From NCBI GenBank assembly GCA_964016885.1, contig OZ024742.1:257176001-257240000 (forward strand): a stretch of 64,000 bases of DNA, given 5' to 3'. The translations under genes were made by a program, and so were the position numbers. Source of the DNA: Eledone cirrhosa. Taxonomy: Eukaryota. Shown one piece after another: positions 4,484 to 62,408 of this stretch. The notes under the pieces were generated by a model. It was not told the DNA's origin and made no database searches. It saw only the letters and a list, made by a program, of their open reading frames with translations. The first letter of the stretch is position 1. Every line of letters starts with the position of its first letter.

Positions 4484-5093
4484 TTGAATTAGAAACTCAA
4501 AATAGTCGCTTACGAAACTGGTCCCATAAGATTTGAACACATATATGTATATATCGGTGTTTATCTTTCTTTAATATTCAATTATAATATACGGCTCGGA
4601 AAAATCTCTTTCCTAGAGCTATTTTATTGTAGGAGACTATTTTGAGTGTCTAACTCAATATATACCTTTGATAAATTCGGCTCCGTTAATTTGTTGAGCA
4701 AATTCAAATGTCGAGTAAACCTGGCTGCTATTTTTAGTGGAGTGAGTTTGTGAGACACGCTAAGTTCCGATACCATGTGCGTTATTATATATACACACAC
4801 TATTCAGTTTTTTTAATATACTTAGAAGTGAGCAGGATACTAATCCTTCACCCACTGACGAGCAAGAATCTGTATTCTCTTCACAATGAACTTGCGAAAC
4901 AGCATAGACACACGCTGTCTGTGTGATTGGTAGTCAACACAATTCCTGTTTGTATTTATTTTCTTGATTTATCCTTAAATTGAGTCTGGCAAACTCTATT
5001 GTCCATAGTTAGTACTTTTTTCACCTTAGCGAATCTGGTCACCTTACGATTTGAACACATATATGTGTTTATCTTTCTATTATTTTCAACTAG
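4484..5093 (+). mobile_element. PLE pLTR remnants (two partial copies, same family as 7615-8055)
   Basis: 4940-5070 is homologous to 7900-8040, and 4585-4660 to the reverse complement of 7615-7690. It contains a hammerhead and ends at (TA)n. Confidence 0.65.
4848..4926 (+). ncRNA. Type-I hammerhead ribozyme, canonical core, branched stem II
   Basis: TCACCCA-CTGACGA(4855-4861)-GCAAG...CTTGC-GAAA(4896-4899)-CAGC...GCTG-TC(4918-4919)-TGTGTGA. GUC site and G10.1-C11.1 pair are present; stem I has one mismatch. Confidence 0.85.
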
Positions 5094-5984
5094 ATATATA
5101 TATATATATATATATATATATATATATATATATATATATATACGTTTAGAAAATGTAAGAATCTCAAACAGAATATTGTATAAAGTTTACATTTTAGTAA
5201 ATATAAACGGAATATGTTTTAATAATACACGTATTTGTTGGTTGATAAGTTACAGTTGCATAGTTGTGTCATATATATTTACATATAAGAAGTGTGATGG
5301 TGTGAGATCCTTAGATATCATAATTGAAATTATCTTATTACTAGTTGTAACTATTCAATTTAGATTTACTTTAGATTTAGGATACATTCGGAAGAGTCAT
5401 GGTACACGTTTGCATTTAAAAGAAAGTTGGCACAATTAGAATCATGTTGTGCATTAGAATATAGGAAGGGTTGCATGTGAGTACGTAGACACACTATAGG
5501 ATTGTGATTATCCTGATTATTCAGTTGTAATGTCATAGTAAATCATTGTTGTAATGTTAACTCCTATGGCGTTTCCCTGGCTTTCTTCACACATTCACAA
5601 TGAGATCGTGCGAATGAGTTTTCCGAGAAGTTCAAGTAGTCCGGGTTTTGCACCAAATAGTAGATACGTCTTGAAAGTTAGACATGGAAAGAAAATATGT
5701 GGTTAATATAACTGAACTGGTTGTATAGAAGGTAAGAGCATTATATATGAATAAGCTTTCGAGTTAATAGAGTTCGTTTACTTATCCCTGCCTACACATT
5801 GATGAATTAATTATTCGTCTGAATTAAAAAAAACATTATATATATATATACAGAGAGAGAGAGAGAGAGAGAGGGGGAGGGAGAGAGAGAGAGAGAGAGA
5901 GAGAGAGAACGAATGAGAGGGAGAGAGGGGGAGACTGAGAGAGAAGTGGAGATATACAGAGAACGTTTGAGAGAGAGAGAGAGA

Positions 5985-6094
5985 AATGACTTCTGCAGGG
6001 CGAGAACTGTTTCATTCGAATGATGCCATCGGGAATATCCATCATTCCTGATGATTTCATGTGAAAAAATACCTCTAGGCCTGTAGAAGTCATT
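5985..6094. mobile_element. Fold-back pLTR remnant with degenerate hammerhead (family of 36757-36868)
   Basis: Inverted arms AATGACTTCTGCAGG... and ...CCTGTAGAAGTCATT. ATTC-CTGATGA-TTTC...CCTGTAGAA matches 36810-36852. Confidence 0.6.
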
Positions 6095-6119
6095 GATTGA
6101 CGATCGATTTTCGTCAAAT

Positions 6120-6300
6120 CGGACCGAGGAAACAAAGTTTCCATTGGTCTTTCCAATTGCTAATACAATATATCGGTCTCAACTCCAGGTAAAAGGAGCA
6201 ACGTGAAATAAAGGGTCTTGCTCAAGGACATAACGCATCGCCCGATCTGGGAAAGGAACTCACAACCTCACGGTTGCGAAACCAATCCTCTAACAAATCA
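6120..6300 (-). mobile_element. tRNA-derived SINE fragment
   Basis: Minus strand reads GTTAGAGGATTGG...GAGTTCC (A/B-box-like), then TGTCCTTGAGCAAGACCCTTTATTTCAC. Similar pieces occur at about 14620-14730 (-), 16910-16990 (+) and 31800-31930 (-). Confidence 0.55.
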
Positions 6301-6363
6301 GCCATAGAATATATATAATAGAATATAAAAATGCCTTTTTTCTACCAATGTATATAGTGCATT

Positions 6364-58958: not shown

Positions 58959-58974
58959 ATATATATATATATAG

Positions 58975-60365
58975 AGGATAACAACATATCGTTAAATGTA
59001 ATCCAATTAGAGGATGTGAATACTTCCTATTATGGATAGTTTTTTACAAATATAGTATACCTATGTACTATAAATTCAGGTAGCTTGGCATATTGGTTCC
59101 ACGGTTGGGGAGTTTAAGAAAGGTGGTACGTACATATACACTCTATGACTAACAAGAATCTGTCAAAGACAACGATTCTCGCCTATAAAATCTGGCAACT
59201 TAAATATGCAAACATGGAATATAAAATCAGCTGGACAAAGCTTTCATAAGAAAAGGCTTATCAAATTGGCATGTCCCACTCTGGTCTCTGTAATATTGAA
59301 CTTTTACAAATTTTTAATTACAACAAGATACTTCTTAACAGTAAAATTGAAAAACACATTTTTTGTCGACATAAATCGGCGACTAAATTTGAGATCATTA
59401 GACGAGCTTAATTCCATCTTATCTATTCCATAACCCAGATTGTACCACTTGCATCTATTATGATATCACATTATCAACATCATCATCATTATAATTATAA
59501 ATATAATTATAATTGTTATCATCTATCAAAGAACAACTTGAAAACCTCTTATATTTACATTCTTATTTTATATATCTTTATTTTTCACTCTTTATCTTAA
59601 TATTTCTCTACCTAAATTTATTTCATCTCTGTCATTTTATTTTATCATATAATATAACTTAAGGGTAATTAATTAATTTATTTATTAAAATAACCAATAC
59701 ACACATAAATATATTTAACATTATCATACTTTCACCATTTTTTCATATATTTTTTTATAATTTTTTTTTATATATCTATTTTTATTTTTATTTACATTTA
59801 TTCATGCATTATTCATCTATTTGCCCCTCTATTCTTATCTTCTCTCTATCCTACGTTATTCTCACTTATGTTTATCTCTCATCTATATACCATCATCTTC
59901 TATATATCTTCCTCTCTTTATATTTCTATCTACAATAATTTCTCCTTTTCTTCTTCATTCGCTTTTTCTTTTTCTTTTTCTTTTTTCTTTTTCTTTTTCT
60001 TTTTCTTTTTTTTTCTTTTTCTTTTTCTTTTTCTTTTTCTTTTTCTTTTTCTTTTTCTTTTTTTTTCTTGGTTCTCCTTCCTTTACTTTCTTTCTTTACT
60101 GTATCTATCCCTTTCCTCCTCCTTTTCTCTCTATATCTTTATTATTAATATTATTGATGATGTAATTTGAATTTGTAAATTTAGCGGTTACATATATATT
60201 TTTAACAGTTTCCGATGATCTAGTAGAGTTAACATCGTATTTAAAGTTGAGTGGCACTCTTTTTAGTGTTCAGGAATTTTAGACAACTCTATCAGTGAAA
60301 CATTTGTTAGACTGCAAATAAATCCCTTTTTTTACTGTTGACCATGTTATTCTCCGCTTTTTCAA
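58975..60365 (+). mobile_element. 5'-truncated PLE: decayed GIY-YIG, 3' UTR and pLTR
   Basis: Manual translation across frameshifts gives NIVYLCT...IGSTVGEFK...KIWQLK...LCNIELL...LLNSKIE...CRHK. Hammerhead at the 3' end. Confidence 0.75.
60206..60314 (+). ncRNA. Hammerhead variant (CCGAUGA, U4C) with 78-nt stem II domain
   Basis: CAGTTT-CCGATGA-TCT..TAGAGTT...AACTCTA..AGT-GAAA-CATTTG-TT-AGACTG, then AATAAA. Confidence 0.65.
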
Positions 60366-60464
60366 TTATATATATATATATATATATATATATATATATA
60401 TATATATATATTTATATATATATATATATATATATATATGTATATATATATATATATATATAAG

Positions 60465-60750
60465 AGAAATCGAAAAATCAGTGATGCATCTCAACTCAAT
60501 TTATTGTGTGTTACAATTTTTCGCCGGCGGACATCATTCGACGTGTCCGTCGAACCTGCGCGTCCAGAATCATACAGATCCGCACAATGATCGCGTCTCG
60601 AGCTGTCCGCCGGCGAAATAATTGTAACACAATAAATTGAGTTCAGATGCCTCACTGATTTTTCGTTTTCTATTCTATCAAACTCTGCTCTGTAAGAGCA
60701 TAGAGTGCTCAGCCGTCATAACACCTATGGAAGCATCTTAACTACTATCC
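60465..60750. mobile_element. Fold-back pLTR (arms 60465-60533 and 60604-60671) related to 18749-18960
   Basis: Inverted arms of about 68 bp. Hammerhead 3' half GAAA-TAATTG-TA, followed by AATAAA. Confidence 0.75.
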
Positions 60751-61021
60751 GACACACACACACACACACACACACACACACACACACATACACACACACA
60801 CATACACGCTAGCACACATACACTCACACACATACACACATACACACACACACATATATATATATATATATATATATATATATATATATATATATAGAGA
60901 GAGAGAGAGAGAGAGTATAACCATGTCCATTACGAGCTGAGGATCCGCTAAGGTCAAACAATTATTCTCGGTATGGTGAACTAACTGGTGTGTAACCACT
61001 TATATATATATAAATATATAT

Positions 61022-62408
61022 AACAAAGGAATTGTGGTAAGAAACCAGATGGACCATAACGCACCAGAGTACTCAATACTTACTGAAGTAGAGTGGTAAA
61101 TAGGAAACATTATGACCCCTATGGAAGAAGTAACCTAGACATCAGTGGAGAGCCGACCAGGAGGTGCAACTGCCCTGATAGATATACGTGCCCCCTCAAC
61201 AACAAATGCCGAGAACGTAATGTGATCTACCAGTGCAACGTGAGGACGGACACCTACAACAAAGCTTATATAGGATTAACTGCGTGTGACTTCAAGAACT
61301 GGCTCTACCAAAACCGACATACTTTCTGAAACCCGGTCTGGCGGCATGCCTCTACGCTTTAGGGCCACATCTGGGACCTCCAAGATAATAATATAACCTA
61401 CAATCTCACTTGGCGCTTAGTGTTCAGAGCTAACTCTTACACGGGAGGACGCCGTCCGTGTAAGTTATGCTGGGAGGAGACATTAGAATTGCTGTTTTCG
61501 AAGGACCAACTCCTAAACAAGAAAGGCGAACTGGTAAACGCATGCAAACACAGATTACGTTGGACTTACCTCACCCTCAAACACCATAACGACCCGGGTG
61601 GGTAGACAAAAGCAGATACCCCCCCACACACACACACTTGCTGAATAGGTTAGGGGAAATCCAGCATACATAGGTAGATGTATCTCTTTTCTTTTCCTCT
61701 TTGTCTTCTTCTTCCCCCTGTCTCACTCTATCACTTCCTTCCACCCCATATGTTCTTTCTCGTCTGCTTTCCTCTTTCGCCTACCCCGATGCAGTCCATC
61801 GGGCCTCTCTAGCTTCAGTTACCCCACCCCTGCAATTTTAAGATAGAATTGGCCGAATACGTTTTACTAACTACTTATAGCAGATGTGTTAAACCCCTTT
61901 AATGTTGTATTAGTTTTGTTACTAGTCAATTTCTACGAGTTTTTTCTATTCTCAGCTTATCAACCTGTAATTGTACGATAGCATTGTGATTTTTTTTAAT
62001 TCATTTCTCACTATCTTATTTTATATATATTTTTTTTATTTCTATTATCTTTTATTGTCTCCTACTCTCATTCGATTTACCTATTCTATAACCACCCTCC
62101 TCTACTTCATACACTATCCTTAGTATCTGCTGTATACATATCACTTTCAACGCTTGACCGCTCCACTCACTCCCCTATTGTTCTACAGGCAAGTTCAGCC
62201 AGCCATACCTCCCACCACATGCCATGATAGACTTATTTGTGTTTACAACAAATTTTAACCAATCCTCTTGACAACTACAATCTTCCCATATAAGAATACC
62301 CCCTTGACAAGTTCGTCTATTTATTCACCAGGCTAAAAATTCTAATTTAGTCCAGAAATAGCCGTCGAAACGGCTTGAGCACTGCCGTCGTGGTCATACT
62401 TTTTCCTA
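61022..62408 (+). mobile_element. 5'-truncated PLE (GIY-YIG 61160-61605) with inverted pLTR stub and U3-A8 hammerhead at 62299-62394
   Basis: CNCPDRYTCPLNNKC..VIY..YIGLT..CKLC..E..LLNKKGEL..CKH. CCCCC-TTGACAA-G..CTATTT/AAATAG..C-GAAA-CGGC..GCCG-TC-GTGGT. Confidence 0.85.

Follow-up and report, generated by a model that had tools for sequence, protein, structure and literature searches.

Enlarged, covarying stem II domains with a recurrent internal loop in hammerhead ribozymes of Penelope-like elements from Eledone cirrhosa

A 64,000-nt stretch of the Eledone cirrhosa genome (assembly GCA_964016885.1, contig OZ024742.1, positions 257,176,001 to 257,240,000 of the forward strand; the whole stretch is hereafter the window) harbors numerous hammerhead ribozyme motifs, several of them at the ends of Penelope-like elements (PLEs), in which the two core boxes are separated by long inserts in stem II. 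The window has a G+C content of 33%, lies in a 3.0-Gb assembly and is rich in (TA)n and broken open reading frames (ORFs) of retroelements; a repeat search of it was dominated by (TA)n. The locus raises the question of whether such inserts are conserved, which elements carry them, and what a small ribozyme would gain from them. Three groups of inserts were found to share one internal loop, 5'-A-N-U-3' opposite 5'-A-G-3' (the ANU/AG loop), within covarying helices.

The first-pass annotation had listed about 20 hammerheads from at least ten different sequences, seven of them cited with their insert lengths. A census by blast with family representatives gave 24 rows, three of which were microsatellite artefacts; the other 21 motifs or remnants, together with one at 36810 and a decayed one at 6048 (both plus strand), make 23 in the window, including three half copies and one with an internal deletion, from about 15 repeat families. 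At all seven cited sites (4848, 18832, 29317, 43693, 53072, 60206 and 62299) core box 1, GAAA, stem III and an NUH cleavage site were present, and the insert lengths (34, 63, 59, 90, 61, 78 and 56 nt, respectively) were right. Families are named below after the core-box position of the window copy, 4855 standing for the site at 4848, 18839 for 18832, 43805 for 43693, 60212 for 60206 and 62304 for 62299. A strict descriptor, comprising both core boxes and stems I, II and III, passed only five window copies (4855 plus, 21804 plus, 29398 minus, 53043 minus and 53077 plus), the remaining copies being decayed; it returned 0–1 match in each of 20 local shuffles of the window and none in its complement or reverse. 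A chance origin of the window motifs is excluded. Comparison of four sequencing runs showed scattered variants only. An Rfam scan of the window gave no hammerhead among the matches listed (150 of 151), which were microsatellite look-alikes of microRNA models. The expectation that descriptors with short loops would miss these motifs was borne out, the published min-HHR descriptor allowing a stem II of 3–7 bp and a loop 2 of 3–10 nt (PMC4209133; here and below, published statements are those of the accessible sections of the cited sources).

Each cited motif was found to represent a dispersed family with 1,027–2,062 first-look candidates, 40 of which were scored, and the insert is family-wide. 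In a 1.0-Mb sample of 100 stretches of 10 kb (90 spread over large contigs and 10 beside the window), the descriptor gave 115 matches against 0–2 per length bin in four controls (three shuffles and one reversal). Stem II domains of 6–20 nt accounted for 62 of the matches, 45 of which belong to two tandem families; 25 had domains of 21–40 nt, 18 of 41–70 nt and 10 of 71–140 nt. Genome-wide, exact patterns with inserts of 70–99 and 100–129 nt matched 17,443 and 13,001 times (controls, 210 and 973), and a CCGAnGA core with a 60–89-nt insert 6,408 times (control, 187). The pattern for 40–69 nt gave 21,294 matches against 1,317, a count inflated because YADD codons of the abundant reverse transcriptase (RT) of long interspersed nuclear elements (LINEs) mimic core box 1, as in 32 of the 100 rows listed; this look-alike (for example L075) inflates relaxed hammerhead searches in general. 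With the false family allowed for, exact matches with inserts of at least 40 nt number about 50,000 over four patterns (with 6-nt stem III boxes) and exceed the class of 6–35 nt, for which a pattern that misses 4-nt palindromes gave 12,987 against 2,903 in the control.

The motifs follow the type I order, core box CUGAnGA, GAAA and NUH site (C-G-S). Among the block orders searched, only CGS was found (13 in the 1.0-Mb sample and 63 in other loci), the five other orders giving none; neither the non-circularly permuted orders SGC, CSG and GCS nor type II or III order was seen. Clustering of hits with inserts of at least 40 nt gave 68 clusters, whose representatives comprised 52 CUGAnGA, eight UUGAnAA and eight CCGAnGA cores; four were judged false or artefact rows and set aside. 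Grouping by eye yielded an alpha group of 17 families (67–97 nt), a beta group of 15 (58–63 nt), a gamma group of four (99–115 nt), a delta group of three, an epsilon group of four branched families and a zeta group of 16 (46–63 nt), with four others and one nested-core row. The 56-nt 62304 family fell outside the clustering pattern because its stem III is a hairpin.

The ANU/AG element is a 3×2 internal loop within a long helix, present once in beta and gamma families and twice in alpha. It occurred in 11 of 19 inserts of at least 55 nt, with 1.8 expected. Because it had been found by eye, all 3×2 loop types were tested; ANU/AG came out on top, being present in 11 of 18 families, and across 60 shuffles no type exceeded nine. 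Outside the families used to define it, 9 of 10 alpha families and 6 of 12 beta families had it, with 0.8 and 0.3 expected, respectively, as did one of one gamma and one of two delta families. In the 75–97-nt alpha group the two loops are separated by 8 bp and the helices around them covary. In a loop-anchored table of 16 alpha families, 11 have the two loops 11 nt apart (range 10–14); how far the first loop lies from the core is variable, at 15–26 nt in alpha, 13–15 in beta and 38–43 in gamma. In the window, the alpha pattern is represented by the 43805 copy (43690..43812, minus strand; 90-nt insert 43798–43709, CATATG palindrome, site after 43697), with loop 5' sides starting at 43780 and 43769 and 3' sides at 43737 and 43727, and by the 60212 copy (60205..60314, plus; CCGATGA core at 60212, 78-nt insert, site after 60308), with loop 5' sides at 60239 and 60250. 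The beta copy at 18832..18926 (plus; 63-nt insert, 61 in the family; CATATG palindrome, site after 18920) has one AGU/AG loop and a decayed stem I. An alpha-related hammerhead overlooked in the first reading lies at 62608..62706 (minus), with a U3-A8 core, a 67-nt insert, one ANU/AG loop and its site after 62614.

The helices that frame the loops are kept by compensatory change. The two pairs below the first loop were retained in 16 of 16 alpha families, as U-A/C-G and A-U/G-C; in the 8-bp helix, one position was paired in all 16 with five pair types, some positions being no better than shuffles; and where stem II closes beside the core, each of five positions, with a 1-nt offset, was paired in 12–15 of the 16 families. 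In MAFFT alignments, seven alpha families had 90.5% of cells paired and double changes at 8 of 15 pairs, beating all of 500 shuffles on four of five measures, and 15 beta families had 86.9% paired and double changes at 12 of 23 pairs, beating all 500 on all five, although relatedness alone can beat such shuffles. Double changes were also found at 18 of 31 pairs in five other families and at 7 of 13 in six zeta families, and the RNAalifold covariation term for the seven alpha families was −2.34. Absence of covariation, which had been named beforehand as one outcome that would overturn the proposal, was not what the alpha, beta and zeta alignments gave. Between families whose likeness by column is only about 52%, the flanking pairs are exchanged and the loop letters stay constant. 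By a crude test, 20 of 28 family pairs are more alike in the insert than in the adjacent untranslated region (UTR), the mean excess over shuffle being 0.19 against 0.01 and 0.06. A covariance model built from the seven alpha families matched only the copy at 60219 in the window and not 43805; the two alpha subgroups are therefore too far apart for one model. Taken from sequence comparison, the best reading of the conserved ANU/AG stem II is that of a selected RNA module.

Not every insert is of this kind. Folding of the inserts relative to shuffles gave z values of −2.8 (43805), −3.1 (60212), −3.4 (53077), −3.5 (29398), −4.3 (62304), −1.6 (18839) and +0.1 (4855). The branched fold proposed for 4848 did not hold as a family trait: of 34 aligned copies only the one in the window has the second hairpin, and the fold of the family insert is no better than that of its shuffles. 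Truly branched inserts were observed in the epsilon group, which is absent from the window (L247:1860-2004, minus strand, L315, L290 and L335): these are 95–97 nt long and form two hairpins on a three-way junction. No ANU/AG loop was found in the 20 epsilon and zeta families. Zeta families (L352, L353, L354, L108, L176 and window 29333–29391) have an internal loop of their own, CUC opposite an A-rich strand, between covarying helices; it is a second conserved module, unrelated to ANU/AG, and the zeta and epsilon inserts need their own explanation. There are at least four unrelated-looking insert architectures, and the three groups that share one loop may descend from one expansion. A candidate long insert at 26235 was rejected, since the inner core box of this decayed copy (26126..26243, minus) leaves a domain of 20 nt and the outer CTGAAGA creates the false length.

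The carriers were identified from the ORFs upstream of the motifs. Most long-insert families with a traceable ORF end Hydra-clade PLEs. The 62304 and 43805 families have DKT in place of DKG and an RWK-like N-terminal motif (RWR/IRWK), the combination by which the Hydra clade is defined (Craig et al., 2021; PMC8557442), and the traced families have a C-terminal GIY-YIG domain without CCHH and a CxCx5C linker. Complete copies with an ORF between two pseudo-long terminal repeats (pLTRs) are present, with pLTR periods of 3,096 and 3,109 nt, as are inverted 5'-truncated copies and (TA)n targets, (TA)n lying about 40–75 nt past the cleavage site in most multi-copy alpha and beta families. The RT at 22787–23992 of the window had 356 relatives, including a Hydra vulgaris protein at 40%, and grouped with Hydra-clade proteins. 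The alpha copies at 43690..43812 and 60205..60314 and the 62304 copy (62298..62393, plus; U3-A8 core at 62304–62310, 56-nt insert, hairpin stem III, site after 62389) are Hydra-clade 3' ends, the last also occurring as full tandem copies spaced by 3.1 kb. A Hydra-type linker and GIY-YIG fragment at 63397..63759 (minus) lies upstream of the 62699 hammerhead (62608..62706), the Pfam match of this fragment to GIY-YIG (E 0.0018) being below the cut-off. For the 18839 beta family the link is weaker, consisting of a Hydra-type ORF in one of 16 fetched loci (L365) and overlapping homology among copies. A protein search with the end of the 43805 ORF found no longer relatives, and a metagenome scan with a single protein and a search of viral contigs gave none.

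The claim that the motifs are type I hammerheads of PLE pLTRs therefore stands for the PLE ends, but two of the seven cited families, 29398 and 53077, form with their relatives ORF-less tandem units (periods 659, 592 and 528 bp) with no shared ORF upstream, and the parent of the 4855 family was not traced, none of 22 copies having an upstream ORF. The 29398 and 53077 families were each linked once to a GIY-YIG ORF (in 1 of 27 and 1 of 29 copies, respectively), and these ORFs were taken as chance neighbours. In the window, the first of these families is represented at 29315..29405 (minus; 59-nt insert, CCATGG palindrome, site after 29321, unit of 659 bp, no ANU/AG loop); the second forms an inverted pair at 52955..53049 (minus; U3-A8 core TTGATAA, 61-nt insert, CTGCGCAG palindrome) and 53070..53165 (plus; site after 53158), a relative forming the 592-bp units. 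The 4855 copy lies at 4848..4926 (plus; 34-nt stem II domain, 35–36 nt in most copies, hairpin stem III, site after 4919). The zeta and epsilon families, with tandem periods of 659, 592, 528 and 743 bp (the last from one epsilon pair), are retrozyme-like derivatives, as judged from their arrangement. Long tandem arrays of short hammerheads were also observed at L234, L189 and L224, with a 14-nt stem II domain, 4-nt palindromes and one period near 420 bp; these are classic retrozyme-like satellites.

To place the long stem II, 94 loci of Hydra-clade relatives from metagenome and genome contigs were taken (the best 80 of 482 and 14 of 15). A sense-strand hammerhead was found in 66 of the 94, and 66 of 67 distinct motifs had a 10–25-nt stem II domain, the single 90-nt match lying inside an ORF. 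These sequences indicate that the long stem II is a derived trait of the host lineage; the closest outside relatives may be under-sampled, because the ranking used a protein that was not from the host genome. In a quick tree of 38 C-terminal protein rows, the alpha families formed one clade (Shimodaira-Hasegawa-like approximate likelihood ratio test, SH-aLRT, 99), with beta, gamma, delta and 62304 on deep branches without resolution; a first tree on 175 residues gave no resolution. One row inside the alpha clade (K32) was rejected because its ORF piece belongs to the 62699 family. Animal Hydra-clade PLEs with their hammerheads were also present on contigs in bacterial genome bins (L461–L474), for which contamination from the host is the most likely source.

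Stem I pairing was present in most families (29 of 29, 27 of 27, 34 of 36 and 19 of 22 copies) and covaries in beta. In the 43805 family it is 1 bp in 41 of 41 copies, none reaching four of five pairs; likewise, none of three copies of R17, a second alpha family and a relative of 43805, has four of five. The 43805 family is young, its copies being 96–99% alike over 1.6–3.1 kb, and one of them has a nearly complete ORF with a pLTR on either side. In the minimum-energy fold predicted for the family, the tail is paired with an insert strand, at about 10 kcal/mol below the hammerhead-open fold; the notion of a permuted ribozyme was rejected, as the bases after the tail-pairing strand are not a core box. 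U4 of the hammerhead core is normally invariant. The CCGAnGA core runs through several whole alpha and beta subfamilies, and CCGATGA occurs in most of 36 copies of the 60212 family. Stem III is, by sequence, a 6–8-nt palindrome of many sequences or a hairpin; a palindromic stem III, as earlier described, holds for many families, the exceptions being the hairpins of 4848 and 62299 and the broken palindrome of the window copy at 60206. The position just before AATAAA applies to most alpha and beta families (0–10 nt after the site), but the signal is absent in the 29398 and 53077 families and in gamma families that have the ANU/AG loop. In tandem copies the ORF starts 190–215 nt after the cleavage site.

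Tentatively, and at somewhat less than an even chance, the enlarged stem II may be bound by the element's own RT–endonuclease protein, serving as a handle on its RNA. A protein dimer would read both loops, about one helical turn apart; it would promote pairing of two copies by way of the palindromic stem III, and their cleavage, and would keep the RNA's 3' end in place for reverse transcription. Cleavage 0–10 nt before AATAAA would cut the poly(A) signal off ORF-bearing RNA and would free unit-length RNA from tandem transcripts. Because the abundant young 43805 family retains the module beside a 1-bp stem I, selection would act on binding, and cleavage could be dispensed with. Binding by the protein is favoured on three grounds: the loop-to-loop spacing is fixed and the loop-to-core distance is not, the module is retained where stem I has been lost, and a PLE hammerhead needed its protein, with cleavage dispensable for insertion (PMC11167929). 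A bolder version, drawn by analogy with telomerase RNA and TERT, is that the hammerhead has turned into a ribonucleoprotein scaffold whose tandem loops would recruit a dimeric, telomerase-related RT, with catalysis dropped in some active families; we consider it doubtful.

Several observations weigh against binding by the element's protein. Its chief weakness is that most Hydra-clade elements, and the ORF-less families, are without the loop: related Hydra-clade elements (66 of 67 motifs) and short families in the host genome use short stem II domains, so that Hydra-clade transposition in general can do without the module, and the zeta and epsilon families, which must recruit protein in trans, do not have it. 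The minimal active RNA described in PMC11167929 lies inside the ORF start and is not an enlarged stem II. The loop was first spotted by eye, and the 16-family alpha table was anchored on it; the families are related, and counts of loops and covariation are not independent. RNAalifold on the unanchored 16-family alpha alignment, which was poor, gave no structure, subsets having worked.

The same distances and pairings bear on a second explanation, in which the ANU/AG loops would dock on the tail beyond stem I or on the dimer partner and replace the contact between loops 1 and 2 that is missing from open type I hammerheads. Natural hammerheads need contacts between stems I and II, often a pseudoknot (PMC3088659); alpha and beta resemble each other in the tail that follows the site, with AATAAA at 0–10 nt, and an insert strand is complementary to the tail in two alpha families. 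However, only two of four families compared showed this complementarity, a pairing that competes with the helix of the module itself, and the module is still present where stem I is down to 1 bp. The distance from loop to core ranges over 13–43 nt, and this variation beside a fixed loop-to-loop spacing fits an independent binding site better than docking on the core. We regard such a tertiary stabiliser as unlikely.

Decidedly improbable is a module read by host machinery, which would govern use of the adjacent poly(A) signal, how the RNA is exported or how stable it is, or how the downstream ORF is translated from tandem or circular RNA. In alpha and beta, AATAAA either overlaps stem I or comes after it, the ORF begins 190–215 nt past the site in tandem copies, self-cleaving hammerheads promote translation in fungal viruses (PMC13725137), and a host reader would account for the confinement of the module to the host lineage; yet the module lies upstream of the cut and departs with the upstream fragment, and gamma families retain the loop without AATAAA. 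Least probable of all is tolerated extra sequence, in which any hairpin closing stem II suffices and shared loops reflect recent common descent: stem II lengths do range without a break from 11 to 115 nt, several architectures have nothing in common, the folding of some inserts does not surpass that of shuffles (z near 0, 4855 and others) and cleavage itself may be dispensable (PMC11167929), but loop letters kept amid swapped pairs in families so diverged, and inserts more alike than the neighbouring UTR, speak against it.

The literature search found no description of 40–115-nt stem II domains or of the ANU/AG loop in PLE hammerheads; Lunse et al. (2017) and Arkhipova et al. (2017), outside that search, may bear on novelty. 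Hammerheads in PLE ends are already known, and the enlarged, covarying stem II with a repeated loop is new within the literature covered. Why PLEs keep hammerheads is a standing question, given poor cleavage in vitro, one hammerhead that needs its protein and insertion that does not need cleavage (PMC4209133, PMC11167929). The natural series described here makes it testable, with short and long stem II in one clade, one and two loops, intact and lost stem I, and coding and ORF-less carriers. Counts of hammerheads in animal genomes are underestimates, since inserts of at least 40 nt outnumber those of 6–35 nt and are invisible to the published descriptor. If it is real, a defined RNA handle for a PLE RT would be useful for engineering these enzymes.

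The remaining features of the window are mostly copies and fragments of the same kinds of elements. A 31-nt-insert hammerhead of the TATATA family (19035..19098, minus; one change in the palindrome) ends an element whose Hydra-type ORF fragment lies at 20441..21640 (minus; RT thumb, CxCx5C linker, GIY-YIG without CCHH), about 1.35 kb from the hammerhead at 19091; an inverted copy at 21796..21861 (plus) passed the strict descriptor, and a third copy lies at 49134..49199 (plus). A second 31-nt-insert hammerhead, with a TGATCA palindrome, occupies 39408..39486 (plus; site after 39466), a deleted copy of its family being at 38168..38232 (minus). Beta-group remnants comprise an inverted 3' half copy of the 18832 family (18775..18802, minus), a strongly decayed copy (52553..52643, plus) and a fold-back pair of decayed copies at 60498..60638 (60498–60533 minus, a half copy; 60540–60638 plus). 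Short hammerheads were found at 36803..36855 (plus; 12-nt stem II domain, 14-nt stem III), with the decayed relative at 6048 (plus), and at 60927..60986 (plus; decayed, 11 nt, Hydra-clade family), and a 3' half related to the 62304 family at 44390..44419 (plus). Two Hydra-type RT fragments (22787–24521 and 55835–56836, both plus) are related to the 62304 family in the tree, their own hammerheads not being found in the window. ORF fragments at 40117–42133 (minus), which we take to be a Neptune-like PLE, include a GIY-YIG Pfam match at 40120–40896 and have no hammerhead linked to them. Pif1-like helicase fragments at 26746–27207 and 47420–47800 (both plus; Pfam matches for the latter) are probably Helitron remnants.

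In the bulged-G or loop E motif of the sarcin-ricin type, a purine pair, an unpaired base and a U-A pair follow in a row. The ANU/AG loop bears only a resemblance to it, as the middle base varies (G, A or U) and the closing sheared A-G pair is missing. The minimal hammerheads of metazoan PLEs (Cervera and de la Pena, 2014; PMC4209133) have in common with the present ones the type I order, the place in the pLTR, a palindromic stem III, an extra base after A9, the U3-A8 core variant and high family diversity. They differ in size: the published helix II is 7–8 bp at most with loop 2 capped at 10 nt, whereas the domains here are 40–115 nt with conserved internal loops, and the palindrome is mostly 6–8 nt. 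The hammerheads of the Hydra clade (Craig et al., 2021; PMC8557442) share the ORF motifs, the (TA)n targets and a position near the 3' end; unlike those described here, all Hydra rows of File S2, including one octopus family, have a loop 2 of 3–10 nt. The closest precedents that study offers are two motifs of plant PLE-X, flagged there as deviating, in which loop 2 has 29 and 34 nt, and Naiad "half cores" 35–50 nt apart.

Naiad PLEs, with an N-terminal endonuclease, DKA and no canonical hammerhead, do not match the carriers described here, in which the endonuclease is C-terminal in all traced families. Two octopus Naiad consensi (PMC8557442, File S5) share a near-identical 3' block in which, by eye, a site strand, GAAA and a stem I strand with CUGAUGA follow in the order S-G-C, with stem II closed from upstream; judged from its sequence, this block is perhaps a hammerhead in rearranged form, in elements described as having none. 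A pattern search for this order in the host genome gave six unrelated places only.

Non-LTR retrozymes (PMC7229834; bioRxiv 10.64898/2026.07.22.740005) resemble the zeta and epsilon families in being ORF-less tandem units with one type I hammerhead per unit. The units here are longer (528–743 bp against about 300–390 bp) and have a stem II of 46–97 nt. The Anolis Poseidon element (Frangieh et al., 2024; PMC11167929) differs in its clade and in a stem II that overlaps the ORF start, with no enlarged module described in the accessible part of that report. It too is a PLE with a hammerhead: the purified ribozyme required its protein for cleavage, that protein was modelled as a dimer, and insertion in vitro did not depend on cleavage, which provides a precedent both for protein dependence and for dispensable cleavage.

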